A DNA stretch of 64,000 nucleotides from a bacterium (GTDB lineage: Bacteria > Verrucomicrobiota > Lentisphaeria > Victivallales > GWF2-38-69). This document shows positions 5,885 through 63,571 of this stretch, piece after piece (within the stretch, counting starts at the first letter, position 1; each line of letters begins with the position of its first letter). Where the stretch lies: positions 4,904 through 68,903 of the forward strand of contig JAJXWI010000001.1 in the NCBI GenBank assembly GCA_021781705.1. The letters are read 5' to 3'. The notes beneath the pieces are model-generated. The model searched no databases. It had not been told where the DNA came from and saw nothing but the letters and a program-made list of their open reading frames with translations. A program made the translations under genes and the position numbers.

Positions 5885-7120
5885 TTATTTATAGCGCTTC
5901 AGAACAGCAACGAATGCTCCGTCATGCAAGAGAGAAGGCAGTAACATTTGCTCTTTTTCAATAGTAAATTCAGGATGTCTTTCTATAAAAAAATTTATTT
6001 GCTTCCGGTTTTCTTCGGGTTCAATACTGCATGTACTGTAAATCAATCGCCCGCCGGGTCTAACTTTAGACAAAGCATCTTCCAATATTTCAGACTGCAG
6101 CTTCACTATGTCTCTTAATGATTTTATCGTAAAATTCCACATCACATCAGGCCTGTGCCGTATAACGCCAGTATTAGAACAGGGAACATCCAGTAAAACC
6201 AGATCAAAGGAATCATCTGGCATACTTTTAGCTGTTTTCAGATTCATAATCTCTACATTTTCAAATCCGAATCTCTCAATATTTTCCCTGACTCTTTCCA
6301 GCCTGCTTAAAGACCGGTCTGTCGCAATTATTTTAGATTTTTTGAATATTTCGGCAAGAAGAATTGTTTTCCCACCCGGGGCCGAACAATAATCCAACAC
6401 CGTTTCGACATCCATTTCCGCAATAAGTTCTCCAAATAATGCAGTAGCCGGATCCTGAATGTAAATCTTTCCTTCTTTCATCATATCAGAAGTCAAAACT
6501 ATTCCAGGCTCTTCTGTTGAAAAAAAATGAAACCTCTTTAAAAAGCTTACTCCTTCAATCTTTTCGCACTTTAACTTATTTTCCGGTTCACCCCCAGAGA
6601 TAGATCTAAAAGTAAATAGCGGGATTGTTTTTATTGCCTCTAGAATGGTTAAAACTTCCTCTGGCGAAAAATTCTTTTTCCACCTCTCAAGAAGAATTGA
6701 TGGAACCCTGATCTCATTGTCTATACCCTTATTTTCCCCCGAAGCTGTATCCTGACAATTAACCAACTGCCTTATCATAGCATTAACAAAACCTGAAGCT
6801 CCCTGCCCTTTCTTTTTCTTAATAAAAGAAACTGCAACATCGGCGACAATAGCCGACGGGACCACGGACTGGTAAAGTATCTGAGTAAATACCACACTCA
6901 AAACTCTCCGGATAGCAGGTTTGGTTTTGCCACTACTAAACCTTTTAAGATAAGAATCTATAACACCTTTGTTTCGAAAGTAATTAAACAAAATTGAGGA
7001 AACAGTCCTCCTCGGTTCAGCTTCAGTCAAATAATAATCAAGATAATCATCGAGAGTTCCGCCATTTTCACAAAATTCTATACCTCTGACAGCCAATCGT
7101 AAAATTTCTTCAGTCTGCAT
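5885..7120 (-). CDS. rsmB: 16S rRNA (cytosine-C5)-methyltransferase RsmB/Sun family
   Basis: NusB-like N-terminal region, then DYCSAPGGKT (SAM binding), LLDVPCSNTGVIRHRPD and YSTCS catalytic Cys motifs. Confidence 0.85.
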   Translation of the reverse strand: MQTEEILRLAVRGIEFCENGGTLDDYLDYYLTEAEPRRTVSSILFNYFRNKGVIDSYLKRFSSGKTKPAIRRVLSVVFTQILYQSVVPSAIVADVAVSFIKKKKGQGASGFVNAMIRQLVNCQDTASGENKGIDNEIRVPSILLERWKKNFSPEEVLTILEAIKTIPLFTFRSISGGEPENKLKCEKIEGVSFLKRFHFFSTEEPGIVLTSDMMKEGKIYIQDPATALFGELIAEMDVETVLDYCSAPGGKTILLAEIFKKSKIIATDRSLSRLERVRENIERFGFENVEIMNLKTAKSMPDDSFDLVLLDVPCSNTGVIRHRPDVMWNFTIKSLRDIVKLQSEILEDALSKVRPGGRLIYSTCSIEPEENRKQINFFIERHPEFTIEKEQMLLPSLLHDGAFVAVLKRYK

Positions 7121-7325
7121 ATTATACTTAAATCCTTAAATTCGTAGTATCATGTCAATATAATAAAATATCCTTAATACCTCCATTTTATAACCACAAA
7201 AAACTCAAAATACTCGAAAATAACAATAAACCCTCTTTGACTTGGAGTACAATCAGTATATTTTATTCGCTCTAATTAGAGTCAACACGAAAGGAGTTTT
7301 TGTGGGTGGCTCCAGTTAGCCTTGT

Positions 7326-7403
7326 GGTGGTTGTAGCTCAGTTGGTTAGAGCGCTTGGTTGTGGCCCAAGAGGTCGGGGGTTCGAGTCCCCTCATCCACC
7401 CCA
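7326..7403 (+). tRNA. tRNA-His (anticodon GTG) with encoded G-1 and CCA
   Basis: Cloverleaf read by hand. G-1 pairs with discriminator C73. The acceptor stem is GTGGTTG/CATCCAC (one U-U mismatch). D arm is GCTC-AGTTGGTTA-GAGC. Anticodon stem is CTTGG/CCAAG with loop TTGTGGC. T arm is GGGGG-TTCGAGT-CCCCT. It ends in CCA. Confidence 0.9.
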
Positions 7404-7486
7404 TTCTCATCTTTTAGATTCAATTATCTTGCTTTTCTGAATCAGAACAGTTTGTTTTTTCATGCTTATTCTAATTCTTCAGCTTT

Positions 7487-8029
7487 CTAGCCTTCCTGCT
7501 TCTTATACTCACTATATGGCTTGGACTTTGATAGTCTATCGTTCCAGCATTCTTTGTAAATCTTAGCCAGCTTCTTTGAATGAATAACAAGAACATTCTC
7601 AGCATTATTTTCCTGCGCCGCCTTTGTGAAGTTAAAGCTGCCGGTAATTACTATATGGCCGTCAATAATCATAACCTTATTATGTGCTATGGCCGGTTTA
7701 TAATCAATCCAAAGCGGGATTTTCTGATTCTTCAAGAATGTAGCGGATGAGTATTTCTGAGTTACCTGGCTCTTGTCAAGTATTACCTTAGCGTCTACAC
7801 CTCTTTTATGGGCTTTCATAAGAGCTTTTGCAATCGGCGCTGATGTAAAACTATAACTCTGCACCAGGATTGTTTTTTGGGCTTTATCTATGGCATTAAC
7901 GATAATATCCTGACATTCGCCTTTAGGAGAGAATGCAACTTGGAAAGTGGTACCTTCTTCAAAAGTTTGAGAACCGGCAAATAATGATAGAGAAAATAGT
8001 ATTAATACTGTACTAAGAAGTTTTTTCAT
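7487..8029 (-). CDS. secreted phospholipase D-family (HKD) endonuclease, Nuc-like
   Basis: Track ORF trimmed to the ATG at 8029 (MKKLLSTVLILFSLSLFAGSQ signal peptide). It has a single HKD motif, AHNKVMIIDGHIVITGSFNFT, and is ~180 aa, like Nuc-type PLD nucleases. Confidence 0.8.
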   Translation of the reverse strand: MKKLLSTVLILFSLSLFAGSQTFEEGTTFQVAFSPKGECQDIIVNAIDKAQKTILVQSYSFTSAPIAKALMKAHKRGVDAKVILDKSQVTQKYSSATFLKNQKIPLWIDYKPAIAHNKVMIIDGHIVITGSFNFTKAAQENNAENVLVIHSKKLAKIYKECWNDRLSKSKPYSEYKKQEG

Positions 8030-8373
8030 AGGTGCCAAGATACACTTAATATCATCAAAAACAAGAAAAGCGAAACCATTCAAAACATATTTGGGCTCTA
8101 TAAGACAATGAAAATCGGTACTTGTAAACTTAAAATAAATTACCGATATTCTTTGTGATTTGTCTTTCTCTTGCTTTGGAACGGGTTACTTTGATATGAT
8201 ATAGTATTCATTGAGTAGATGCTCTTTCTTATAATTGGTGTTTTTTAGTAATTGTATTGGCTTTACGATATTGCACACCATGCGCAATGTTTTGCATCTC
8301 TTTTATCAGTAATATGATGCAAGCATTATGACGAGCTCTAAATATTTTAAAAATACTATAAAGAATAAAATTT

Positions 8374-10272
8374 ATGAATGGACAAGAGATTACAGCATTG
8401 GAGAACAAACTCTGGGCGGCAGCTGACCAGCTCCGTGCCAATTCTAAACTAACTGCTACGGAATATTCATTCCCTGTTCTGGGACTTATCTTTCTCAGGC
8501 ACGCCTACAGCAGATTTGTCAGCGTAAAAGACAAAATAGAAAAGGAACTGCCTATCCACCCTCAGAAAGGAAGAAGAGCTCTGACTAAAGATGACTTTCA
8601 GAAGGAGAAAGCGATGTATCTTCCAGAGAAAGCACGCTGGGAATACCTGGCTACACTGCCAGAAGGAAAAGATATTGGAGCAGAACTGGATGATGCTATG
8701 AAGTCCATAGAGGCTGAATATGAGACGCTCCAAGGCGTACTGCCCAAGAACTATTCGCTATTTGAGAAAGACCTGATGTACCGATTGGTTCGTATATTCA
8801 ATGCCGAAGAGCTGAACATAGCAAAAGGTGATGTTTTCGGCAGAATATACGAGTATTTCCTGAACAACTTTGCCAAGTCTGGAGCACAGGAAGGCGGGGA
8901 GTTCTTTACTCCGCCAAGTTTGGTAAATACTATTGTTATAATCATTGAGCCGAATCACGGCATATTTCTAGACCCTGCATCCGGAAGTTTCGGAATGGCT
9001 GTTCAAACAGGGCACTTCCTGGAAGAAGAAGGACTAAACCCTTCCCAGAAAATTACATTCTACGCTCAGGAAAAGACAGATACAAATATCAAGCTCTCCA
9101 AGATGAATATGGCTGTTCACGGTCTCGACGCAAATATCCTGCAGGGAAACACTTTCTACGAAGACCAGCACGGCCTTGTTGGCAAGTGCGATTTTGTTAT
9201 GGCAAATCCTCCGTTCAATGTGGACGGCGTTGATAAGAGCAAAGACAGCGTAAAGAACGATTCAAGGCTGCCATTCGGGTTGCCGAACAATGACAATGCA
9301 AATTATCTCTGGATACAATATTTCTACTCCTATCTCAATCCAACGGGGCGTTCGGGCTTTGTTATGGCATCTTCCGCTTCCGATGCTGGCAGCAGCGAGA
9401 AACTAATCCGTGAGAAGCTCGTCAAGACTGGAGCCGTGGATGTAATGGTTTCCATAGGGACTAAGTTCTTCTATACCCGTTCGCTTCCCTGTACTCTCTG
9501 GTTCTTTGACAGGGCAAAAGAGAAAGACAAAGAGCGCAGGGACAAAACCCTTATGCTTGACCTGCGGGATGTTTACCGCAAAGTATCTTCCAATCTGCAC
9601 GATTTCACGCCTGAACATCATAAGAATATCAAATCCATTGTAGGGCTTTACAGAGGCAATAATGACTACTTCAAGAAAACCATAACAGAATACAAGAGCG
9701 AAGCCGAAAGCTCACTGGAAGAAGCCAGAACGCTATTTAAAACTATCACGGAAAAACAGCTCAAAGCCGAAAACCTGGCGCTCAAAGTTGATAAGCACAC
9801 CTTGCAAATTGCCGAACTCAAGAAGTCCAAACGGGAACTCAATAATGCACATAAGGAGCTTCCTGCTGAAATCAAAACCCTTCTTCAGCAGGAAGCGGTG
9901 AAGAAAGACAAGAGCCGCAAGGAACGTTTGCAGGAGTACAATAAAGATCTCGAGCTGTTAATGGCAGAGTTCAACGCCGCCGCTGACAAGTGCATATACT
10001 TTGACAAGGAACACCACTGGCTGACAAGCCGTTTCCCGAAAGCTGAATACAACGATGTCCCAGGCCTCTGCAAAGTAGTAAGTCAGAGTGAAATTGAAAG
10101 CAATGACTTCAGCTTGACTCCTGGGCGATATGTGGGCGTAGCGCCTCAGATTGATGACGGTTTCGACTACGAAGCGAGACTTAGGGAGATACATTCTGAA
10201 TTTGAGGGACTGAGCGCTGAAGCTACAACCTTGTCATCACGAATTATGGAAAATATTAAAGGATTATTATAG
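8374..10272 (+). CDS. hsdM: type I restriction-modification system, DNA methyltransferase subunit M
   Basis: HsdM N-terminal region (LWAAADQLRANSKL), SAM motif LDPASGSFG, catalytic NPPF (VMANPPFNV), and C-terminal NDFSLTPGRYVG. It carries an extra coiled-coil stretch at roughly residues 430-560. Confidence 0.9.
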   Translation: MNGQEITALENKLWAAADQLRANSKLTATEYSFPVLGLIFLRHAYSRFVSVKDKIEKELPIHPQKGRRALTKDDFQKEKAMYLPEKARWEYLATLPEGKDIGAELDDAMKSIEAEYETLQGVLPKNYSLFEKDLMYRLVRIFNAEELNIAKGDVFGRIYEYFLNNFAKSGAQEGGEFFTPPSLVNTIVIIIEPNHGIFLDPASGSFGMAVQTGHFLEEEGLNPSQKITFYAQEKTDTNIKLSKMNMAVHGLDANILQGNTFYEDQHGLVGKCDFVMANPPFNVDGVDKSKDSVKNDSRLPFGLPNNDNANYLWIQYFYSYLNPTGRSGFVMASSASDAGSSEKLIREKLVKTGAVDVMVSIGTKFFYTRSLPCTLWFFDRAKEKDKERRDKTLMLDLRDVYRKVSSNLHDFTPEHHKNIKSIVGLYRGNNDYFKKTITEYKSEAESSLEEARTLFKTITEKQLKAENLALKVDKHTLQIAELKKSKRELNNAHKELPAEIKTLLQQEAVKKDKSRKERLQEYNKDLELLMAEFNAAADKCIYFDKEHHWLTSRFPKAEYNDVPGLCKVVSQSEIESNDFSLTPGRYVGVAPQIDDGFDYEARLREIHSEFEGLSAEATTLSSRIMENIKGLL

Positions 10273-10468
10273 GTAGGGCGTGTCTCTCCGAGACCGCCGA
10301 AAAAGCGGACGCAAGGTAGGGGCATCTCTTCGCAGATGCCCGATTAATTGTGCGGACGCCTCGGAGGTGCGTCCCTACCCATCGAAAATAATATATGGGA
10401 ATGTGTGGTAGGGTCAGATCCCCGAGCTGACCGCTATTGACGGACGGTTACGGAGAACCGTCCCTACC
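10272..10468 (+). repeat. REP cluster, left copy (five GC-rich hairpins bounded by GTAGGG/CCCTAC)
   Basis: Hairpins seen: GTCTC-TCC-GAGAC, GGGCATCT-CTTCGC-AGATGCCC, GGACGC-CTCGGAGGT-GCGTCC, GGTCAG-ATCCCCGAG-CTGACC and GGACGGTT-ACGGAG-AACCGTCC. Several are preceded by GGTAGGG or followed by CCCTACC. Confidence 0.85.
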
Positions 10469-10494
10469 AAAAGTCATGAAGGGGAAATGAAATT

Positions 10495-10965
10495 ATGGAT
10501 AAAAATCTACCGAATCGAAAAATGCTACCCCACAGCGTGCCTTATTGGTTGACGGAAAGTCCCATTTATTTTTTTACCGTTTGCGCAAGTCCGAGGGGAG
10601 AAAATCAGTTATGCAAAAAAGATATATCCGAAAAGCTTTGGGAAAGCGCATATTTTTATATGAAGAATGGAGATTGGTGGATATACTGTTTTCTGCTGAT
10701 GCCGGATCATATTCATGCCTTGATTGGGCTTTCTATGAAAACAGGGCTTGCCGATTCTGTGGCATTATGGAAACGATATGCGGCCAGGAATTTAAAGATA
10801 AACTGGCAGCGGGATTTTTTTGATCATAGGCTTAGAAGAGAGGAGTCAATAATCAATAAAACTCAATACGTATTAAATAATCCAGTCAGGGCAGGATTGA
10901 CAGAAAGTTATGAACAGTGGCCGTATTATTGGGGATTTAATTCAGATGGAAGGAGTATAAGGTAG
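10495..10965 (+). CDS. REP-associated tyrosine transposase (RAYT; IS200/IS605 TnpA-like Y1 transposase)
   Basis: 156 aa with the HUH motif in LLMPDHIHALI and the catalytic Tyr motif YVLNNPVRAGL. It is flanked by REP clusters. Confidence 0.85.
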   Translation: MDKNLPNRKMLPHSVPYWLTESPIYFFTVCASPRGENQLCKKDISEKLWESAYFYMKNGDWWIYCFLLMPDHIHALIGLSMKTGLADSVALWKRYAARNLKINWQRDFFDHRLRREESIINKTQYVLNNPVRAGLTESYEQWPYYWGFNSDGRSIR

Positions 10966-11158
10966 GGCGGGTCTCTCCGAGACCGCCGAAAAAGCGGACG
11001 CAAGGTAGGGGCATCTCTCCGTAGATGTCAGATTGATTATGCGGACGCCTCGGAGATGCGTCCCTACCCATCGAAAATAATATATGGGAAGATGTGATAG
11101 GGTCAGATCTCCGAGCTGACCGCTCTTGACGGACGGTTGCGGAGAACCGTCCCTACCC
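10961..11158 (+). repeat. REP cluster, right copy (direct repeat of 10272-10468)
   Basis: It aligns colinearly with the left copy. By eye there are about 14 substitutions and 1 indel in ~198 nt. Confidence 0.85.
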
Positions 11159-11326
11159 AAAGAACAGGTATGAGAAAATATTAAAGGACTACGCTGATGA
11201 AGTTCAAGATTGTAAATTGTGTTGTTGTGCCATGCAAAAAATTATAATATTTTGTATGTTACAATCGGATAAATATAGAAATAGCACCCGTTGTAAAACT
11301 CAGGAACACTTAAACGAGCTGGGATT

Positions 11327-12442
11327 ATGAGTTGGAAGAGAGTAAAGGTTCATGATTGTATTGAATTCTTCAATGGGAAAGGGATAAAAACAGAATTACA
11401 TACTGGAGACAATCCAATTTATGGGGCCAATGGGATAATAGGTTCTACAAAAGAAAGTAACTATAGCAATGGAATTATAATTGGTCGAGTAGGTGCATAT
11501 TGTGGAGCTGTCCAGGTAGAAAAAGGTACATTTTGGGCAACTGATAACACGATAGTAGCTAAGGCAAAAAGAGATAATGACAATCAGTTTTGGTATTATC
11601 AGTTTTCAGACTTAAAATTGAATAAATATGCAGGTGGAGCAGCTCAGCCACTTGTTACTCAGTCAGTCTTAAAAGAGATAGATATAGACCTTCCGCCGCT
11701 TGAGACACAGAAGCGGATAGCTAAGATATTATCGGCGTATGATGACCTGATAGAAAATAACCTCAAGAGAATAAAACTTCTCGAAGAAGCCGCTCAGAAT
11801 ATCTACAAGGAATGGTTTGTGAATTTCCGCTTCCCTGGCTCAGAACATACCGAGTTCATCAACGGCCTCCCCAATGGCTGGGAGAGAAAGGCATATTCTA
11901 AAGTAGCTGAGTTTGTTAATGGATTTGCCTTCAAGCCAAGTCATCATTTCTATGACGGAATACCAATTATAAAAATTAAAGAATTAAAAAGCGGTATTGC
12001 AGAAGATACGCCAAGAAATTCAGGTGAGGATATTCCACTTAAATACCACTTCGATGATGGCAGCATCATCTTCAGTTGGTCTGCCGACATTGATGCATAT
12101 TGGTGGTCAAATGGCAAAGCCTTACTGAATCAACACTTATTTTTGGTATTGCCTAGTTATCCGAATGCCAACGAGTATTTCTATTTTGCATTAAAAAATT
12201 CAATGCAAGACTTTAGAAACAGAACAACAGGCGCAACAATGAAACACATCAAGAGAACTGAACTTGACAATGTTTTATGCGTTGTACCTGTAGAAGATAC
12301 GGTGAAAGAATTCTGTAAAGTAACTTCTCCAATACTAAGCCTTATAACAAACTTAAATCAACAGAACCAGAAACTCAAAGAGGCGCGGGATATTTTGCTG
12401 CCACGGTTGATGAATAGAACGATAGAGGTTGGTGGTTCGTAG
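11327..12442 (+). CDS. hsdS: type I restriction-modification system, specificity subunit S
   Basis: Two variable target-recognition halves are separated by the conserved helical spacer LPPLETQKRIAKILSAYDDLIENNLKRIKLLEE. A related C-terminal helix is QNQKLKEARDILLPRLMN. Confidence 0.85.
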   Translation: MSWKRVKVHDCIEFFNGKGIKTELHTGDNPIYGANGIIGSTKESNYSNGIIIGRVGAYCGAVQVEKGTFWATDNTIVAKAKRDNDNQFWYYQFSDLKLNKYAGGAAQPLVTQSVLKEIDIDLPPLETQKRIAKILSAYDDLIENNLKRIKLLEEAAQNIYKEWFVNFRFPGSEHTEFINGLPNGWERKAYSKVAEFVNGFAFKPSHHFYDGIPIIKIKELKSGIAEDTPRNSGEDIPLKYHFDDGSIIFSWSADIDAYWWSNGKALLNQHLFLVLPSYPNANEYFYFALKNSMQDFRNRTTGATMKHIKRTELDNVLCVVPVEDTVKEFCKVTSPILSLITNLNQQNQKLKEARDILLPRLMNRTIEVGGS

Positions 12443-12515: not shown

Positions 12516-12746
12516 ATGAGCGTAATGACTTTAAGATTACCCGAAAAAATAGAGAAAGAGTTATCGGAACTCGTTAAGACAACAGGACATACAAAGAGCT
12601 ATTTCGTTAATGAGGCAATGAAGACATACCTGGAGGACAGGAAGGACTACATCAAAGCGGCGGCTATTCTGGAAAAGATTGAAGCTGGAGAGATGAAGAC
12701 AAGACCTCTGAAAGAGATTATGGCGAAGTATGACCTGGGAAATTGA
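12516..12746 (+). CDS. ribbon-helix-helix antitoxin (RelB/ParD/CopG-like)
   Basis: 76 aa. The N-terminal MTLRLPEKIEKELSELVKTTGHTKSYFVNEAMKTYL fits a beta-strand plus two-helix RHH pattern. It overlaps the toxin gene by 17 nt. Confidence 0.75.
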   Translation: MSVMTLRLPEKIEKELSELVKTTGHTKSYFVNEAMKTYLEDRKDYIKAAAILEKIEAGEMKTRPLKEIMAKYDLGN

Positions 12747-12996
12747 AGTATCGAAAGAAGCAGAGAGACTTCTTGATAAGCTGGCAAAGTCTGACAAGAA
12801 GACTCTAAACTTGATTTATAAGAAGTTGATGGTATTTGCTGAAAACCCGAGACAGTTTGGCAAAGCTCTCACAGGCGATAAGCAGGGAATATGGCGATAC
12901 AGAGTGGGAGATTATAGGATTCTATGCCAACTGAAAGACAAAAAGCTGATAATGCTTGTTCTGATAATAGACCACAGAAAGGATGTTTACAGATAG
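12730..12996 (+). CDS. type II toxin, RelE/ParE superfamily
   Basis: 88 aa. WRYRVGDYRILCQLKDKKLIMLVLIIDHRKDVYR is a typical RelE/StbE C-terminus. Confidence 0.8.
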   Translation: MTWEIEVSKEAERLLDKLAKSDKKTLNLIYKKLMVFAENPRQFGKALTGDKQGIWRYRVGDYRILCQLKDKKLIMLVLIIDHRKDVYR

Positions 12997-13002
12997 GGAA
13001 AT

Positions 13003-16000
13003 ATGAGCTCTGATTATTCGGAAGATAAGCTGATAGAGCAGACCTGTATAGAGCTATTTAAGGATAAGCTCAAATGGGATACGATAAATGTTTACGGCGG
13101 TGAAGAGCTTGGCGTTACTGGCACGCTCGGACGGAATTCTGAGGCAGAAGTTATACTCAAGGGGCGTTTCTACGATGCGATAAAGAAGCTAAATCCCGCC
13201 CTTCCCACTCAGGCTTACGATAAAGCGTATGAGGAAATCATCTCCGATAGTGCGACCAAAACACTGTCTGAGCTCAATCAGGAGAAGTACAACTTTCTGA
13301 GGGACGGGATAGGAATTACCTTCAAGAACAAGAAGGGAGAGATTATCAGGAACAGGAAGATAAAGGTCTTCGACTTTGAGAACCCATTGAATAATGATTT
13401 CCTGGCAGTCCAGCAGTTATGGATAGAAGGAAAATCCAAACGCAAAAAGAGGCCTGATATTGTGGGTTTTGTCAACGGGATACCGTTATTATTTATCGAA
13501 CTCAAATCACATCATCAAAAACTCAAGGTAGCTTATGAAAAGAACCTCTCCGACTACAAGGACACTATCCCGAAACTTTTCCACTGCAACGCATTTATCA
13601 TACTGAGCAACGGTATTGAGAGCAAAATAGGAGCCATCACAAGCAAGTATGAGCATTTCAACGATTGGAAGCGAATAGAAGAAAAAGAGGAAGGAATCGT
13701 AAGCCTTGATACAATTATTCTGGGGGTTTGCGAGAAGAGACGCATTCTTGACTTATTCGAGAACTTTATTCTGTACGATACGACGATAGGTTCTGTGATT
13801 AAGCTCATAGCCAGGAACCATCAGTTTATCGGAGTTAATAAGGCTATTAACCATCTGAAGAAACAGCAGTCGCTCTTGCAGGCAGAAAAGATAAGGCCTG
13901 CCGATGCACAGAAGCTGGGCGTATTCTGGCATACGCAGGGGTCTGGCAAGTCGTACTCAATGGTTTTCTTCTGCCAGAAAATTAATCGTAAAATGGGCGG
14001 AGCGTATACCTTTATCATAGTTACGGACAGAGTGGAGCTGGACAAGCAGATTTACGGGACATTCGCAGGAGTCGGAGCCGCAACAGGCGATAATTCCAAG
14101 GCAGATAGCGGAGCGGAGTTAAAAGAGCTTCTCAAAACAGGCGATAAGTATATCTTCACGCTTATTCATAAGTTCAACTTCACTGAAACCGTAACTGAGA
14201 GAAGCAATATCATTGTTATCTCCGATGAAGCGCACAGGACACAGAACGGCACGCTAGCTGTCAATATGAGAAAGGCTCTCCCCAATGCTTCATTTATAGG
14301 GTTTACAGGGACGCCGCTCTTCAAGGACGATGAACTCACCAGAAGGATATTCGGAAAATATGTATCTGTCTATGACTTCAAGAGGTCTGTCGAGGACGGT
14401 GCGACAGTGCCGCTCTATTATGAGAACAGAGGCGAAAAGCTAAAGCTGAAAAATCCCACAATAAACGACGAAATCAGAAACGCAATAGAGGAAGCCGACC
14501 TCGATGATGACCAGGAAGAGAAACTCAAAAGACTTTTCGCAAGAGATTATCCCATCCTTACGGCGGAAAAGAGATTGCGCTCAATCGCAACAGATGTAGT
14601 GAAGCATTTCAACGGGCGAGGCTACAGAGGAAAGGGAATGTTCGTAGCTCTGGACAAGGTGACCGCTGTCAGGATGTACAGCTACATTGACGAGGAATGG
14701 AAGAAATATCTCATTAAGCGAAAAGCTGAAATTGACAAAATGACCGACGAGCAGGAACAGCTTATTGAATACAAAAGGCTTCAATGGTCAGAAGAGACCG
14801 AAATCGCAGTTATCATAAGCCACGAACAGAATGAAATAAGCAAGTTTAAAGCCTGGGGTCTGGACATTGAAGAGCATCGGCTGAAAATGAATGAACGAGA
14901 TCTGGAGAAGGAGTTCAAGGACGAGAACCATCCTTTCAGGTTTGCCATAGTCTGTGCAATGTGGATTACAGGCTTTGACGTAAAGAGCCTTTCAACTATG
15001 TATATCGATAAGCCGCTCAAATCTCACACCCTGATGCAGACAATAGCCAGGGCAAATAGAGTTCACGAAGGAAAAAATAACGGCCTTATCGTGGATTATA
15101 TCGAAACTTATAAGGCTCTGCTCCAGGCCTTGGCAATCTACGCTATTGGCGGCAAAAAGGACGGCGGAGAGATTGAACAGCCCGTCAAGCCATTGGAAGA
15201 ACTCATAGAAGAACTCGAAGAGGCGCTTAACGCTACAAAATCCTTTTCGAAAGATGAACTTAACTTTGAAATTGAAGCCATTATTGAAGCTCAAGGACTG
15301 CGCAAATTAAAAGCAATTAAGGATGGAGTCGGAGCTGTTTGTACCAATGACGAGACCAGAAATAAATTCGGGATACTTGCCAGGGAAGTATTTAAGAAAT
15401 ACAAAGCCCTTATGCCTGAGGATGCTATCTATAAATTCCAGGCAGAAAGAGACGCTATCAATGCGATGTACTCCGTAATCAACCAGAATACTGAGGATGC
15501 AGACATTACAGCAATTGTCAAGCAGGTTCAGGATGTAGTAGATAAATCCATAGAGAGCCTTAATATTGAACTTCTACCTGTAGAAGGGCACGGCAACAGG
15601 TTTGACCTGAGCAGTCTTGATTTTGAAAAAATCAGGGGCGAGTTTGATAAACTTAAAGAGAAAGGACTGCAGAATATCGCCGTCCAGTCGCTCAAGGAGA
15701 AACTCGAAAAACAGCTTAAACGAATGATTGAAAAGAACCCATACCGCATAAACTTCTATGAACGGTATCAGGAAATCATAGAAGAATACAACAACGGCAA
15801 AGACTATAAGGCTGTCAAAGAGATATTCGACAAACTCATAGACGAGTTCAAGAAGATAGCAGAAGAGGAAAAACGAGGCATAAGGGAGAACCTTAATGAG
15901 GATGAGCTGGCTGTTTTCGATATGCTTGGCAAAAACAAGAAAATAAACGATAAAGAAAAAACCGAACTCAAGAATGCTGCCAGGAAACTATTAAAACGGC

Positions 16001-16209
16001 TCAAGAATAAGGAATTTAAAGTCGAATACTGGCCTGATAAAGTTCAAACAGCTGCGGCTGTCAGAACTACCATAAATGACTACCTGTTCCAATACCTCCC
16101 CCATCCCGTTTACGACGATGATGACAGAATCGCGAAAATAGAAATTCTCTATGATTTCTTCAAAGCCCGTTACTCGGACTTTGCCAGTGTAACGGCTATA
16201 AATATGTAG
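13003..16209 (+). CDS. hsdR: type I restriction-modification system, restriction (helicase-nuclease) subunit R
   Basis: 1068 aa with SF2 motif I HTQGSGKS, motif II ISDEAHRTQ (DEAH), motif VI QTIARANR, and a long helical C-terminal region. It starts 7 nt after the relE-like stop. Confidence 0.9.
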   Translation: MSSDYSEDKLIEQTCIELFKDKLKWDTINVYGGEELGVTGTLGRNSEAEVILKGRFYDAIKKLNPALPTQAYDKAYEEIISDSATKTLSELNQEKYNFLRDGIGITFKNKKGEIIRNRKIKVFDFENPLNNDFLAVQQLWIEGKSKRKKRPDIVGFVNGIPLLFIELKSHHQKLKVAYEKNLSDYKDTIPKLFHCNAFIILSNGIESKIGAITSKYEHFNDWKRIEEKEEGIVSLDTIILGVCEKRRILDLFENFILYDTTIGSVIKLIARNHQFIGVNKAINHLKKQQSLLQAEKIRPADAQKLGVFWHTQGSGKSYSMVFFCQKINRKMGGAYTFIIVTDRVELDKQIYGTFAGVGAATGDNSKADSGAELKELLKTGDKYIFTLIHKFNFTETVTERSNIIVISDEAHRTQNGTLAVNMRKALPNASFIGFTGTPLFKDDELTRRIFGKYVSVYDFKRSVEDGATVPLYYENRGEKLKLKNPTINDEIRNAIEEADLDDDQEEKLKRLFARDYPILTAEKRLRSIATDVVKHFNGRGYRGKGMFVALDKVTAVRMYSYIDEEWKKYLIKRKAEIDKMTDEQEQLIEYKRLQWSEETEIAVIISHEQNEISKFKAWGLDIEEHRLKMNERDLEKEFKDENHPFRFAIVCAMWITGFDVKSLSTMYIDKPLKSHTLMQTIARANRVHEGKNNGLIVDYIETYKALLQALAIYAIGGKKDGGEIEQPVKPLEELIEELEEALNATKSFSKDELNFEIEAIIEAQGLRKLKAIKDGVGAVCTNDETRNKFGILAREVFKKYKALMPEDAIYKFQAERDAINAMYSVINQNTEDADITAIVKQVQDVVDKSIESLNIELLPVEGHGNRFDLSSLDFEKIRGEFDKLKEKGLQNIAVQSLKEKLEKQLKRMIEKNPYRINFYERYQEIIEEYNNGKDYKAVKEIFDKLIDEFKKIAEEEKRGIRENLNEDELAVFDMLGKNKKINDKEKTELKNAARKLLKRLKNKEFKVEYWPDKVQTAAAVRTTINDYLFQYLPHPVYDDDDRIAKIEILYDFFKARYSDFASVTAINM

Positions 16210-42172: not shown

Positions 42173-42186
42173 TCCTCTCTTAATAT

Positions 42187-42280
42187 ACAAGGGGTGCTTT
42201 TACACTCAAAACTTGAGAGGAGTAAGGCTGAGAAAGAAACCCTTTAAACCTGATCCGGTTAGTACCGGCGGAGGGATTGT
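42187..42280 (+). promoter_or_regulatory. TPP (THI-box) riboswitch aptamer
   Basis: ACAA-GGGGTGC...GGCTGAGAAAGAAACCCTTTAAACCTGATCCGGTTAGTACCGGCGGAGGGA-TTGT. It contains the conserved GGGGUGC, CUGAGA and ACCCUUUnAACCUGAUCnGG..CCnGCGnAGGGA elements, closed by an ACAA/TTGT P1 stem. Confidence 0.85.
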
Positions 42281-42360
42281 GAAGCCGTCGGCTGCTGCTA
42301 TTTAGAATGTTTTATACATTCCGATTTGGTTTCCACTTTCTCTAACTAAAAAAACTAAGA

Positions 42361-50067: not shown

Positions 50068-52827
50068 TTAATTTAGAAATAGCCCCAGTGGGATTGAATC
50101 GCCGAGGGTTTTGGTCAATTCCTGCGAATCATCTTCTTGTACAGACTCCAAATGAGCAATCCAGTGAGAAGGGGCATTGTTTTCTTTTAGAAATTTTAAG
50201 CTTTCATTTATTATCCCCTGCCCTAAATTCAAGGCCCTGTCCTGCGTAAGTGCTGCCAGCTTTGACAGGCAAAAATATTTCTCCGCCAAGTTAGACTTAT
50301 CCATGTTATCAAGCAGATTTTTTACCCATTTTTCAACAGGCTTTGGATTAACAGCATTATTTGATTGCGCATGCAAAAGCTTTCTTGCTCCAATCCTGGA
50401 CAATACCCAATATTCATAAGATTCCAATTTTCTACTTCGTGAAATGAGTATTTCAGCCGTTAAAATTTTTTGATTTTCTGGCAGGAGTTCAAGAGCGCCA
50501 AGGCAGCGCCACATTTCGATCTTGGGCTGAAGTCCAATCTTAATTTTTGACTGATAAACGCCTTTGGGAACTATCTGTTTATTAAGCTCTTGGAATATCG
50601 CAATCTGATGTCCGGCCTTAAGTCCAGAAACTACTCTCCTCCAGAAAACCCACCATTCTGCAGCAACCTGAGAATTGTTCGGATTATTCATCCCGTTGTA
50701 CCATATAGCCCAGACTTTTCTAAGCCTTATTTCATCTTCGGGTTCGCCAAATCCCGGTCTCAGACAGAAACCGCAAATATTAAGGAATCGGGCCTCTTTT
50801 TCCGGAGAAATAAGTTCTTTATAATTGACTTTAAGAAGTTCATCCACAAAGCTTCTTATCAAATGTAGCGGCCAGCAATCTTTTGACAAATCAAGTATTT
50901 CTTCCATTTCTCTGAAGATGTTACCGTTTTTATTGTAGCCGCAAAAAAAAGAATTTAAGATTCTTTTACACTTTGATACAAGCGCATAATCTACTACCAC
51001 GTCCGATTTTACCATGCTTTCATCAAGGTCACTTGAAATAAGTCTTATATCAAAACTAAGAGGCCAGACATGGTCAGAATCCAAAGATTTCAGGCTTACT
51101 TTCAGAATGCCAGTTTCAGTAAAATCTGAGACAACCTCGCTCCTCAACTCTTTGCGTTCATGATTTTTACCATACTTCAAAAGACTGTTTAAGGAAGAAA
51201 CAAAAGACATTTCTTCATTTTCATTTATGAAATCCCCAGCCTTATCATTTATTCTTACTGAACTGGAATAAAGGGGAAAAGCGACAGCTTTGTTGGTTTC
51301 TATCTTAAAACTGCCCGGAGTTTCTATTTTAACACTTTCATCTATGCCTCTTGGCATAACACATAAGAGCTTTTCTTTATGTTTTTCAGCGCCTTTATCG
51401 GCTATTTTTAGATAATAGGATCTGTTCGTACCTGTTTTTACCTTTACTCCATCGCCTCTTTTTGTACGACCATAATAAGACGCTCCATACGAAACGGCCA
51501 GGCTCAAATCACGGGAATCCAGTTCAAAAACATTTTCATTATTAAACCAAGTTCTGAGCATCTTGAGAATTCTGTTTCTTAAGATAGCAGGAATCATAGC
51601 TCCGCCATTAAAAAGCACCTTATCAGGAAACAAAACCTGGTAAGTTTTGGAGTCTTTATCATTCTTATTTTCACAAACACGATAAGCGTATTTTAAAAAG
51701 TAAAGCAGGTGCCCGCTAACGGACGGATCGGGTTCATAGGGGAGCCCCATTTTCTGAATCGCAGTTTTTTTAGCAGGAGCGGGAGAATCTGCTGGAATAA
51801 GAGGAAAAAAACCTTCAAGCAGAAGAGATTCAAGCTCATTTTTCTTTAACGAATAACGCTTTGAATTTCCAATAATAGAACTTCCATGTGAGAGTAAAAC
51901 AATATCTATTTCGTTCAAATCAGAACTGAGCAGTTCTTCCTTTGCCTGCCTGGTCTTCTGACACAGGGTCAGCCATTCGCCATGAGAAAGTGTAATATTC
52001 CAGAAAGTTTCAACTTTTCTGGCAATCGCTATGTCTATATTATCGCCGCCAAGAAGAAGATGTGTTCCCGCGGCGCTCCTGACAAGAGATCCGCTCTCCG
52101 TCTTTTCTATAATTGAAAAGTCACTGGTTCCTCCGCCAATGTCTATTACCAATACCCGCTCATTATCTTTTATATTATCTTTCCAAGTTGAAGAGTTTTG
52201 ATCAATCCAGGAATAAAAAGCGGCTAATGGCTCTTCAAGCAAGTTTATGTTTTTGTATCCAGCATTTTTTGCTGCTTCTATAGTTAATTCTCTTGCGGTT
52301 TCATCAAAACTTGCAGGGATAGTAATAACTACACTTTGTTCAGTGAACAGACATTTTGAACCCGACTTATCCTTCAGTTTTCCCAATCTGTAATTCCAGG
52401 CATTCTTTATATGTTCAAGATAATGAGAAGTAATTTCGAGGGGAGAACTCAATATTTCTTTATCAGACCCGCCCCACGGCAAAATTTTTCCTCTGCGGTC
52501 TACACCGGAATGACAAAGCCATGATTTGGCCGAACACACAAACCTGTTGGGCACGGTAGCGCCGAAATCTCTTGCAAATACGCCAAAAAAACAGTCTCCT
52601 CCATGCTTTTCCCATGGAAATCGCATAGACCTAAAATTGGTGGTCTTTTTATCAGGGAAAAAGCAAAATGACGGAAATAATATAAATTCCTCTAGTTCGC
52701 CTTGGGCCGAAAAATGGGGAACCTTAAAGAGTTGTATCCCTTTGTTTTCACTTTCTGTGTCAACAAATGTTACGGCACTGTTGGTAGTTCCGAGGTCTAT
52801 ACCTATAATAAATCGGGATTTTTGCAT
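50068..52827 (-). CDS. atypical Hsp70-fold ATPase with long alpha-helical C-terminal extension (919 aa)
   Basis: Hsp70 nucleotide-binding signatures IGIDLGTTNSAV, VIDIGGGTSDFS, LLGGDNID and VLFNGGAM. A beta-rich domain ends WPLSFDIR, followed by ~320 aa of helical sequence. No DnaK lid or EEVD tail. Confidence 0.8.
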   Translation of the reverse strand: MQKSRFIIGIDLGTTNSAVTFVDTESENKGIQLFKVPHFSAQGELEEFILFPSFCFFPDKKTTNFRSMRFPWEKHGGDCFFGVFARDFGATVPNRFVCSAKSWLCHSGVDRRGKILPWGGSDKEILSSPLEITSHYLEHIKNAWNYRLGKLKDKSGSKCLFTEQSVVITIPASFDETARELTIEAAKNAGYKNINLLEEPLAAFYSWIDQNSSTWKDNIKDNERVLVIDIGGGTSDFSIIEKTESGSLVRSAAGTHLLLGGDNIDIAIARKVETFWNITLSHGEWLTLCQKTRQAKEELLSSDLNEIDIVLLSHGSSIIGNSKRYSLKKNELESLLLEGFFPLIPADSPAPAKKTAIQKMGLPYEPDPSVSGHLLYFLKYAYRVCENKNDKDSKTYQVLFPDKVLFNGGAMIPAILRNRILKMLRTWFNNENVFELDSRDLSLAVSYGASYYGRTKRGDGVKVKTGTNRSYYLKIADKGAEKHKEKLLCVMPRGIDESVKIETPGSFKIETNKAVAFPLYSSSVRINDKAGDFINENEEMSFVSSLNSLLKYGKNHERKELRSEVVSDFTETGILKVSLKSLDSDHVWPLSFDIRLISSDLDESMVKSDVVVDYALVSKCKRILNSFFCGYNKNGNIFREMEEILDLSKDCWPLHLIRSFVDELLKVNYKELISPEKEARFLNICGFCLRPGFGEPEDEIRLRKVWAIWYNGMNNPNNSQVAAEWWVFWRRVVSGLKAGHQIAIFQELNKQIVPKGVYQSKIKIGLQPKIEMWRCLGALELLPENQKILTAEILISRSRKLESYEYWVLSRIGARKLLHAQSNNAVNPKPVEKWVKNLLDNMDKSNLAEKYFCLSKLAALTQDRALNLGQGIINESLKFLKENNAPSHWIAHLESVQEDDSQELTKTLGDSIPLGLFLN

Positions 52828-52888
52828 TGTTATTGGCTTCTGTACTTATGGGTTGCTACTATAACTGTCAGCTGTTAACTATTCCTAA

Positions 52889-54691
52889 TCAATTCTGATT
52901 TTGGTCTTTTCTGATTTCAAAATCAAGCTTCCATCTGTTTTCGCTTCTCTTGTCTATGCACCACACCTGAAGCGTACCTGTTTCGGTGTACTCTACATGA
53001 AGATTGACAGGGACCAGGCTTCCTGATGGAATATCACCATAAGGCTCAAGGTTTACAGCAAGAGATGGCAGTTCGTCGATATCTGGCGAATTTTCTATAT
53101 TATCTATAACCGAGCCTGTTTTTCCATTTTTTTTGAACTTAGAGGAATAAAAATGGAAATCTGTAGTTTCCCCGACAATCAAACCCAGTCCTGAATAGTC
53201 TATATCAAGAGACGTTCCCTCTTCCGCACCGACAGGCAGAACACAAAGTCCCTGCATAGGAGGAAGAAAACCCGGAACTGCCGGCATAGAGGTTTCTACA
53301 CCAAGATAATATGAACGGGAACTGCCGGCTTTAATTCTGATTCCGCTGCCTTCTTTTACAAATGCATAACAGCTTGCGCCCAGAGCAACTGCCAGATCAG
53401 GATTGGTACCGGTAAGAATTTTTACGTCTCTCGTTCCCGACGCCCAACTCTTTATCACTTTTACAATTCGATCTTTTATGACATCGGCCTTTGTAACGCC
53501 CCCATTGAAAAGTATGCAATTAGGCAGATCCTTTTCAGATTTACAGTTACTGTTCAGAAATGCAGCAAGGTGCTTAGTGATTGCAGGGTCTGATTCATAT
53601 TTCAGCCCGAATGTACGAAGCCCCGCTCTCCTTGAATCTGTCGGCTTATCTTCCAGCGCGCATTCTGGAAAAAATCCATCTATCAATATTTCATAAACTT
53701 CATTTCTTGAGAGTTCCGTACTTATAGTATTTGCTATCATGCTGCTGCCTCTGCCAAGCACGGTCAGCTTTTCACTTTTCGTTCCTGAATCTGACATCAA
53801 AGACTCTTTAGCCCTTCTGCACCCATAAGTAAGCCCGGTTATCTGATAAGCATCGAGAACCATATTGTTTTCCTTTTTAAGCTTACCTGCTATGGAATAC
53901 GCAAGCGTCAGGTCCATGTTATCACCGCCAAGAAGGATATGATTGCCAACAGCTACTCTTTCAAGCGTAAGATTTCCTTCCGCATCGGAAACTTTTATTA
54001 AACTAAAGTCAGTAGTTCCTCCACCGATATCGCAAACCAGAATAACATCTCCGGCAGAAACTTTTTTTCTCCAATCTTCGCCATGTTCGTTAAGCCACGA
54101 GTAGAAAGCTGCCTGAGGTTCTTCGAGCAATATTATTTCAAGTCCAGCAAGCCCGGCGGCTTTTACTGTCAACTCCCTTGCAACAGCATCAAATGAAGCT
54201 GGAACCGTTATGACAACAGTCTGATTTTCCAGTATATCCTCCGGTTTTTCAGCAGCCATCTGACTATTCCAGGCATTCTTCATGTGTTCAATTATTGTTG
54301 CTGTAGCGTCAAGCGGAGATAGCTGTTTTTTCGGATTATTCCTGTTCCATGGCAGAATAGCCGACATTCTGTCGACATTATCCGCACAAAGCCAGGATTT
54401 AACGGAGGCAACAACTTTCGTCGGAACCTTGGGCGACATTTTTCTCGCGAGTTCGCCAACAGCCAATTCCTGTTTTTCTTTCCACGGCAAGGCAAGACTG
54501 CCTTCAGGAATATCATTTTCATCAGGGATGTACACAAACGATGGAAGAATAACCTCCTCCTTCAGTTCGCCGGGATCTGAAAGTTGTGGAATTTTAAAAA
54601 GTATCGGGACTGAGGATTCAGCGGTTTTATCAATATAACAAACAACGCAATTCGTAGTTCCCAAATCTATCCCAACCAAATAACGAGACAT
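52889..54691 (-). CDS. atypical Hsp70-fold ATPase (600 aa)
   Basis: VGIDLGTTNCVV, VCDIGGGTTDFS, LLGGDNMD and ILFNGGVTK. The C-terminal beta-rich domain ends WKLDFEIR. No helical lid. Confidence 0.8.
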   Translation of the reverse strand: MSRYLVGIDLGTTNCVVCYIDKTAESSVPILFKIPQLSDPGELKEEVILPSFVYIPDENDIPEGSLALPWKEKQELAVGELARKMSPKVPTKVVASVKSWLCADNVDRMSAILPWNRNNPKKQLSPLDATATIIEHMKNAWNSQMAAEKPEDILENQTVVITVPASFDAVARELTVKAAGLAGLEIILLEEPQAAFYSWLNEHGEDWRKKVSAGDVILVCDIGGGTTDFSLIKVSDAEGNLTLERVAVGNHILLGGDNMDLTLAYSIAGKLKKENNMVLDAYQITGLTYGCRRAKESLMSDSGTKSEKLTVLGRGSSMIANTISTELSRNEVYEILIDGFFPECALEDKPTDSRRAGLRTFGLKYESDPAITKHLAAFLNSNCKSEKDLPNCILFNGGVTKADVIKDRIVKVIKSWASGTRDVKILTGTNPDLAVALGASCYAFVKEGSGIRIKAGSSRSYYLGVETSMPAVPGFLPPMQGLCVLPVGAEEGTSLDIDYSGLGLIVGETTDFHFYSSKFKKNGKTGSVIDNIENSPDIDELPSLAVNLEPYGDIPSGSLVPVNLHVEYTETGTLQVWCIDKRSENRWKLDFEIRKDQNQN

Positions 54692-63364: not shown

Positions 63365-63437
63365 AAACAGAATTTACTCGGGGGGTCACTCGATGAACGA
63401 ATATAAATATTCAGTAGAGCCTCTTGTAAGGTTGATA

Positions 63438-63503
63438 AAGGTAGGGCGACCTCGCCGAGGGCGCCGAATTGAAACGGGCGGCTACGGCGAGCCATCCCTA
63501 CCC
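63438..63503. repeat. REP-like element (GGTAGGG ... CCCTACC long imperfect hairpin)
   Basis: GGTAGGGCGACCTCGCCGAGGGCGCCG...CGGCGAGCCATCCCTACCC. The outer GGTAGGG/CCCTACC and inner CTCGCCG/CGGCGAG are complementary. Confidence 0.8.
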
Positions 63504-63571
63504 AATTTTGCAAGAATCTCAGTAGACTATGTGCCAATTTTCTGATTTAAAATTAAACACTGGAGAAGAAT

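Follow-up and report, generated by a model that had tools for sequence, protein, structure and literature searches.

A REP-associated tyrosine transposase and its flanking REP clusters within a type I restriction-modification operon of a Lentisphaerota bacterium

REP-associated tyrosine transposase (RAYT) loci are defined by inverted flanking repetitive extragenic palindromic (REP) sequences, and one third of the RAYTs have flanks that resemble bacterial interspersed mosaic elements (BIMEs) (Nunvar 2010, PMC2817692). The RAYT genes are typically single-copy and remain in one extragenic space (10.1101/2021.07.10.451892). REPs overlapping RAYT 3' ends, and GTAG-tagged REPs in bacteria of the Planctomycetes-Verrucomicrobia-Chlamydiae (PVC) group, have also been reported (Di Nocera 2013, PMC3733652). 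Here we describe a RAYT gene flanked by two REP clusters, identified in a 64-kb stretch of DNA (hereafter the window; contig JAJXWI010000001.1 of assembly GCA_021781705.1) of an uncultured Lentisphaerota bacterium. A first-pass annotation, made from the sequence alone, had described this locus as a RAYT-REP cassette between hsdM and hsdS of a type I restriction-modification (R-M) operon and had proposed a recent insertion or duplication event. Our analyses favor, with a probability of roughly three in four, a canonical REP/RAYT module of the PVC clade, which occupies the hsdM-hsdS spacer of an intact operon at a junction rebuilt by recombination.

The RAYT gene and its REP clusters

The module is composed of the following elements:

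10495-10965, + strand: RAYT gene (156 aa; HUH motif PDHIH at residues 70-74, catalytic Tyr125 in YVLNNPVRAGL)
10268-10473, + strand: REP cluster A (TATA, five GGTAGGG-tagged hairpins, AAAAG), with units at 10272-10298 (forward), 10315-10341 (forward), 10352-10379 (reverse), 10407-10434 (forward) and 10441-10468 (reverse)
10380-10406: AT-rich spacer of cluster A (27 nt)
10956-11162, + strand: REP cluster B, a direct copy of cluster A, with units at 10961-10987, 11004-11030, 11041-11068, 11096-11123 and 11130-11157
63440-63502, + strand: the sole other REP doublet of the window (REPIN-like, i.e., resembling a REP doublet forming hairpin; GGTAGGG...CCCTACC, with different stems)

The open reading frame (ORF) at 10495-10965 is an intact RAYT. 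It had been assigned to this family on the basis of two motifs visible in the sequence and in the list of ORFs (PDHIHAL and YVLNNPVRAGL), and the assignment holds in profile searches: the protein scores 85.2 bits with the NCBIfam equivalog model NF047646 (REP_Tyr_transpos; cut-off 80) and 29.3 with Pfam Y1_Tnp (threshold 23), and reaches 17.5 bits, below the cut-off of 55, with the NCBIfam IS200 model NF033573. The top match by sequence among solved structures is TnpA-REP of Escherichia coli (4er8). An AlphaFold model of the protein, built from a 27-sequence alignment, has a pLDDT of 89.5, and the fold search performed with it placed 4er8 first (E 3.5e-8, TM 0.69), followed by the ISDra2, IS608 and IS200 transposases; the same alignment shows no variation at the HUH histidines or at Tyr125. 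Gene callers begin the gene at M10 (10522, 147 aa), but the true start is 10495, since a conserved LPxRKxLPH motif and an invariant R8 are located upstream of M10. The window contains one RAYT copy. Comparison with the RAYT of locus L093 (81% amino acid identity) gave a dN/dS of 0.07-0.09, which argues for strong long-term purifying selection.

The blocks 10271-10473 and 10960-11162 constitute a gap-free direct repeat of 203 nt, with 93% identity in the repeat search and 92% in the MAFFT alignment. Fourteen substitutions separate 10272-10468 from 10961-11157, and one indel is present at the left block edge (TATA-GG vs TATAAGG), in agreement with the count made by eye in the first-pass annotation. 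The homology of A and B does not extend significantly leftwards, into the 3' ends of hsdM and RAYT (1174 of 2000 shuffles). Spacers of 10-27 nt separate the units of a block, which are ordered forward, forward, reverse, forward, reverse. Each block had been described as a string of five hairpins; the five units are present in both orientations rather than in one. Judged by the BIME definition, the orientation alternates from unit 2 on without strict regularity. Each block is composed of one singlet and two inverted doublets and resembles a BIME- or REPIN-type cluster. The units have in common a GGTAGGG tag at the 5' end and a loop that reads CTCCGAG or CTCCGTA, on stems that differ in sequence and show compensating changes. 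Of seven units tested, six form DNA hairpins in which the 5' GGTAG stays unpaired.

The flanks had also been described as direct, not inverted. This is true of the blocks as wholes, but the two REPs adjoining the gene, CCCTACC (10462-10468, upstream) and GGTAGGG (10961-10967, downstream), are mutually inverted, i.e., canonical, and long direct blocks are present in about a third of the related loci (see below). Both stop codons touch a tag, as had been noticed: the G of the hsdM stop (TAG, 10270-10272) is the first G of GGTAGGG at 10272-10278, and the RAYT stop (TAG, 10963-10965) lies inside GGTAGGG at 10961-10967.

Block B shows signs of decay, which is faster than in block A of the window. 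The tag of its unit 4 reads GATAGGG instead of GGTAGGG (11096-11102) both in the window and in two close lineages (L008 and L009, described below), so that the GTAG tag is lost, and its unit 2 carries stem-breaking changes. The distant doublet at 63440-63502 has TCAGTAGA on both of its sides (window 63412-63527), 29 nt upstream and 17 nt downstream; this 8-mer contains GTAG, and the chance of such a pairing is a few per cent.

The module was compared with 160 loci of the PVC RAYT clade, collected from genomes and metagenomes. RAYT homologs with 42-54% identity carry names such as Pontiellaceae, Victivallales, Opitutaceae and Chthoniobacterales, and relatives found by scanning metagenomes with the RAYT protein and by scanning genome contigs are at most 51 and 50% identical, respectively. 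By these relationships the RAYT is placed in the PVC clade (Verrucomicrobiota, Kiritimatiellota, Lentisphaerota). In 126 of the loci both flanks measure at least 300 nt; among these, a direct flank repeat of at least 50 nt was found in 43 and one of at least 100 nt in 18, the longest being those of L027 (330 nt), L082 (308 nt) and L151 (257 nt); locus L073, with a repeat of 235 nt (95% identity), falls outside this count because its downstream flank is shorter than 300 nt. The RAYT stop is the TAG of a downstream GTAGG in 43 of 157 loci (~27%). It is common in this clade for long REP clusters to flank the gene in direct orientation and for the stop codon to lie in the GTAG tag, which is of use for gene annotation and for REPIN-search tools. 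The GGTAGGG/CCCTACC tag is conserved among loci L012-L173, which share 42-51% protein identity, and the stems differ between genomes. A general association of RAYTs with R-M systems was also considered and rejected, as a methylase is found nearby in only one of the 160 loci.

The interrupted hsdM-hsdS junction

The operon surrounding the module, and the traces of hsdM ends within its spacer, are as follows:

8374-10272, + strand: hsdM, methylase subunit of a type I R-M system (632 aa, intact; Pfam N6_Mtase 242 bits, HsdM_N 73 bits)
10245-10266, + strand: bracket copy X, TATGGAAAATATTAAAGGATTA, the live hsdM 3' end, coding for (M)ENIKGL
11169-11191, + strand: bracket copy X', TATGAGAAAATATTAAAGGACTA, which would read ENIKGLR-stop (TGA 11195-11197)
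11294-11330, + strand: relic of a second hsdM 3' end, in which 11301-11330 code for QEHLNELGL-stop (tblastn)
11327-12442, + strand: hsdS, specificity subunit (371 aa, intact; Pfam Methylase_S 115.7 bits, two stretches)
12516-12996, + strand: toxin-antitoxin pair between hsdS and hsdR (Pfam)
12516-12746, + strand: DUF6290/RHH antitoxin of this pair (Pfam)
12730-12996, + strand: ParE/RelE-family toxin of this pair (Pfam)
13003-16209, + strand: hsdR, restriction subunit (1068 aa, intact; Pfam HSDR_N, SWI2_SNF2, T1R_D3-like, T1RH-like_C)

All three hsd genes are intact, with full-length Pfam domains, and the gene order is that of the nearest homologous operon, L092, whose HsdM is 72% identical. 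The closest HsdM homolog in a search among 5.8 billion proteins likewise has 72% identity. In L092 the genes hsdM (6001-7902) and hsdS (7899-9140) overlap by ATGA. A relic of such an overlap is present at the start of hsdS in the window: the TGA of the relic overlaps the hsdS ATG (ATGA), its QEHLNELGL shows 9/9 identity to the C-termini of HsdM homologs P0010 and P0014 (tblastn), and the 42-nt segment 11294-11335 matches the hsdM/hsdS junction of L092 at 36 of 42 nt, a match not equaled in any of 300 shuffles. QEHLNELGL-stop corresponds to the family-consensus HsdM end in these comparisons. That the cassette interrupts a formerly overlapping hsdM/hsdS junction is borne out by the ATGA overlap in L092 and by this relic.

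The live HsdM C-terminus reads ...IMENIKGLL-stop. Its IMEN is also present in HsdM homologs P0018 and P0057, and its terminal residue is hydrophobic, so this end is family-like as well. The live hsdM joins block A at GGATTAT followed by TATAGGTAGGG (GGATTAT, then TATAG), and the relic reads GGATTATGA; from this comparison the cassette appears to start inside a former stop codon, the last leucine and the stop of HsdM being derived from the block edge. A small ORF (11217-11330, + strand; 37 aa from TTG, 32 aa from the ATG at 11232) has the QEHLNELGL-stop of the relic as its end, with the TGA overlapping the ATG of hsdS. This frame is open in L008 despite nine nucleotide changes, seven of them non-synonymous, and, speculatively, it may only preserve translational coupling to hsdS.

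The cassette is bracketed by a further repeat, taken from the hsdM terminus. The 15-mer GAAAATATTAAAGGA occurs exactly twice in the window, at 10249 and 11174, where 0.02 copies are expected, and none of 100 shuffles contained two or more. The match extends to 17/18 nt and, with one indel allowed, to TATG(A)GAAAATATTAAAGGA(T/C)TA, i.e., 22/23 nt (10245-10266 vs 11169-11191); the flank distal to block B reads CAAAGAACAGG. A short, A/T-rich repeat might arise by coincidence in AT-rich sequence, but this explanation is effectively refuted by the counts given above, by the extension of the match, by the position of the copies (a coding terminus at one, a stop/start overlap, TGATG, at the other) and by the outer flanks of 23 comparable direct-block loci, in which the longest shared string is only 4-9 nt. 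As had been proposed, the 15-mer genuinely duplicates the hsdM terminus, and the bracket is specific to this locus and is not a family-wide target-site duplication.

The downstream copy had further been taken for the displaced original end of hsdM. While the second copy is real, its role as the original end is uncertain, because X' would end in R, in contrast to the terminal L, I, V or F of all 60 HsdM homologs examined; the clearest displaced end at the locus is the 42-nt relic. The spacer and its borders hold three hsdM ends, namely the live end, X' and the consensus-type relic, from whose sequences we infer that the hsdM-hsdS junction was rebuilt at least twice by recombination.

Age of the arrangement and origin of the bracket repeat

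The window matches contigs of two metagenome-assembled genomes, GCA_027457625.1 and GCA_027452705.1, at 99.9% identity or more. Its host is assigned to Lentisphaerota through the EF-G encoded in the window, which shows 72-74% identity to proteins bearing Lentisphaerota or Lentisphaeria names. The RAYT position is identical in L001, L007, L008 and L009, of which the last two represent more distant lineages. L008 (97% identical; Logan SRR13662870) has the same locus with both bracket copies, and its block A (L008:317-430) has undergone an 89-nt deletion between REP units, by which unit 3 was fused to unit 5 (GCGGACGCCTCGGAGAACCGTCCCTACC); this shows that the REP units of one cluster have recombined or slipped against each other. 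In L009 (93.7% identical) hsdM ends in ...IQKNIKDLL-stop, its TAG still runs into GGTAGGG, and the counterpart of X is divergent (AAAAATATAAAAGAT). Substitutions that distinguish block A from block B are common to the lineages, e.g., GTGGTAGGG vs GTGATAGGG and GGTTACGG vs GGTTGCGG. Since they are shared, the duplication of the cluster and its placement predate the split of the three lineages sampled, and the arrangement is stable. A recent event, as first envisaged, is not supported.

The last ~65 nt of the L009 hsdM (L009:1-87 vs window 10184-10270; ...EDLNAEAIRFLIKIQKNIKDLL-stop) are far more diverged than the adjoining cassette (~94%), which suggests a recombination patch in the C-terminal tail of HsdM. 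In L008, the 5' target-recognition region of hsdS differs from that of the window. Because this hsdS 5' domain and the L009 hsdM tail differ, the junction is a site of allele exchange. Exact look-ups with HsdS, HsdM and RAYT returned the same arrangement throughout, except for L005, in which an unrelated HAD-like gene fragment (L005:1-187; ERZ27236866 k141_2054563) is joined to window position 10846, inside RAYT, and is followed by block B, X' and hsdS at 100% identity. L005 could be a chimera of the assembly; otherwise it represents a true rearrangement in which hsdM, block A and the greater part of RAYT were lost. The internal spacer of the blocks found no match in the metagenome scan.

The 22/23-nt locus-specific duplication of the hsdM terminus is the one unexplained item of the locus; it could be associated with the insertion, or could stem from homology-facilitated illegitimate recombination at the shared TATG. 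The latter possibility leads to an account in which two hsdM alleles recombined: a donor fragment, comprising the 3' part of hsdM, the cassette and its flank, would have entered through a homologous crossover in hsdM and an illegitimate join at the TATG microhomology that immediately precedes the resident terminus, X being the donor end and X' the recipient end. TATG is indeed present on both sides of the junction (GAATTATG before GAAAAT vs CAGGTATGA before GAAAAT), the spacer already contains the relic of another hsdM allele, the very different hsdM 3' end of L009 stands beside the same cassette, the hsdS 5' domain differs in L008, and the X' stop overlaps an ATG (TGATG) in the manner of a native hsdM/hsdS junction. 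However, neither the donor nor the recipient allele was observed, X' has the atypical terminal R, and the similarity of the sequence after X' (reading MKFKIVN...; GTTCAAGATTGTA vs GTTCATGATTGTA) to the hsdS 5' end is suggestive but not significant (105 of 1000 shuffles). We regard this origin of the bracket as possible, though not as the probable one.

It is unlikely that X, block A, RAYT, block B and X' together are the footprint of a RAYT that moved with its REP clusters and left a target duplication of 15-23 nt. The cassette would then be, or once have been, an autonomous mobile unit (a "REPtron" with direct ends resembling long terminal repeats, LTRs), transferred whole by RAYT into the hsdM terminus. 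The bracket lies directly outside both blocks and is far beyond chance, the ends are homologous, and direct terminal blocks recur in the family; however, the 23 other direct-block loci lack an outer repeat, HUH enzymes of the IS200/IS605 type make no target duplication (PMC2817692), RAYTs typically stay as single copies in the same extragenic space (10.1101/2021.07.10.451892), and the window has a single copy, whose position is the same in three lineages. The features expected of an autonomous IS200/IS605 element are likewise missing, given the low score with the IS200 model, the single copy in the window and the flanking 22/23-nt duplication. Were such a move real, PVC RAYT-REP units with LTR-like ends would be occasionally mobile by a route other than the "peel and paste" of IS200/IS605, possibly through circle integration, or through rolling-circle transfer and subsequent fill-in repair, which would run against the notion of RAYT genes as entirely immobile.

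The preferred explanation, a canonical REP/RAYT module at a recombined junction, can be outlined as follows. By analogy with E. coli TnpA-REP, the RAYT would be an HUH/Y1 single-strand DNA nuclease that recognizes and binds REP hairpins with a GTAG tag and cleaves and religates the single-stranded DNA beside them, which would spread REP doublets at a very low rate and would not move its own gene. The flanks are a segmental duplication, in which a single compound cluster of five REPs, BIME-like in character, is present twice. In the ancestral operon hsdM and hsdS presumably overlapped by ATGA, as in the nearest relative; one recombination event would account for the 42-nt relic, with its consensus-type hsdM end, where hsdS begins, and another would have put the REP-RAYT-REP cassette at the hsdM stop, leaving the 22/23-nt second hsdM terminus behind the cassette, so that the present hsdM continues beyond its former end into the block A edge and terminates as ...GLL-stop. 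Direct translational coupling of hsdM and hsdS was likely lost in this way, and the REP hairpins at the hsdM and RAYT stops may modulate mRNA stability or translation. The RAYT itself is probably kept, as its counterparts in described systems are, as a single-copy, vertically inherited gene.

Several observations weigh against this explanation. Among the three close lineages the dN/dS of RAYT is ~1, a value based on only 9-11 differences, and the L009 RAYT (L009:313-783, JGI 3300063126) carries D107G and N129D at invariant or nearly invariant columns of the family, so the constraint may now be relaxed in these lineages. Within the 64 kb, just one REP doublet is found away from the cassette, so any ongoing RAYT activity is putative. 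The comparison of orthologous hsdMS loci recommended in the first-pass annotation revealed the ATGA junction of L092, but the HsdM search, whose nearest match is 72% identical, found no empty site, i.e., no close allele free of the cassette, and the insertion is deduced from the relics. The two events at the junction may have taken place in either order, and the 22/23-nt duplication may have arisen by more than one process. Finally, scans of the spacer for sigma-70 promoters and terminators stayed at shuffle expectation and lend no support to a regulatory effect; Rfam gave no RNA family match in the cassette region.

The promoter and terminator scans also bear on a regulatory role, according to which the module was co-opted to set the ratio of HsdM to HsdS/HsdR through stop-codon REPs and lost coupling. 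E. coli REPs stabilize upstream mRNA, and those within ~15 nt of a stop codon reportedly lower translation, as Liang, Rudd and Deutscher are said to have found in 2015. Such a role would fit the contact of the REPs with both stop codons and the retention of the arrangement, with all three hsd genes intact, in three lineages. However, it seems improbable in view of the silent promoter and terminator scans, the 89-nt deletion in block A of L008, the decayed units of block B and the single methylase-adjacent locus among the 160 related ones.

Other features of the window include a tRNA-His gene (7327-7403) and a PLD/Nuc-like gene (7487-8083, - strand), which precede the R-M operon in an island-like layout; a second copy of the tRNA-His 3' end was sought within the window and was not found, and an island boundary is not borne out. 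A thiamine pyrophosphate (TPP) riboswitch is located at 42180-42294 (+ strand; Rfam RF00059, 65.9 bits). Two Hsp70-like genes lie side by side at 50068-54691 (- strand), and the C-terminal domain of one of them is a DUF3731 "DnaK-related" domain; the pair adjoins a GH64 beta-1,3-glucanase gene.

Comparison with known systems

With this locus, a REP/RAYT module is documented in Lentisphaerota, and it is a clean example of such a module tolerated inside a defense operon. Its layered hsdM/hsdS relics record that a specificity locus of a type I R-M system recombined repeatedly. What is currently understood of RAYTs and of R-M systems is unchanged by it.

Four described systems can be set beside it: (i) TnpA-REP of E. 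coli (RayT/YafM; 4er8; Ton-Hoang 2012; Messing 2012, PMC3479197) shares the Y1 fold with HUH motif and single tyrosine, the GTAG-tagged hairpin REPs and the placement of the gene between inverted REPs and compound clusters. It differs in protein sequence (~20% identity), in the tag, which is extended to GGTAGGG here, in the loop CTCCGAG/CTCCGTA, conserved here over stems that vary with compensating changes, and in the host, here a member of Lentisphaerota with 39% GC; the activity of the present RAYT is assumed by analogy; (ii) the REPIN-RAYT systems of Pseudomonas and Enterobacteria (Bertels and Rainey 2011; Group 2/3 RAYTs, PMC5581495) resemble the locus in an apparently single-copy RAYT at a fixed position across lineages, in several inverted REP doublets flanking the gene and in long-term purifying selection. 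Unlike in these systems, the doublet arms have different stems, so that no single long hairpin is formed, and REP density is low, with one doublet in the 63 kb outside the locus; (iii) BIME-flanked RAYTs (PMC2817692) and the GTAG REPs of PVC bacteria such as Opitutus terrae (PMC3733652) provide parallels for modular REP flanks, for a REP over the RAYT 3' end and for the PVC affiliation, whereas the flanks described here form a same-orientation segmental duplication of 203 nt, and the unit lies inside an operon rather than between unrelated genes; (iv) IS200/IS605 elements (IS608, ISDra2) have the same catalytic fold and subterminal hairpin ends and likewise do not need inverted terminal repeats, but the present protein scores 17.5 against the IS200 cut-off of 55, tnpB and multiple copies are missing, and a 22/23-nt duplication flanks the cassette.

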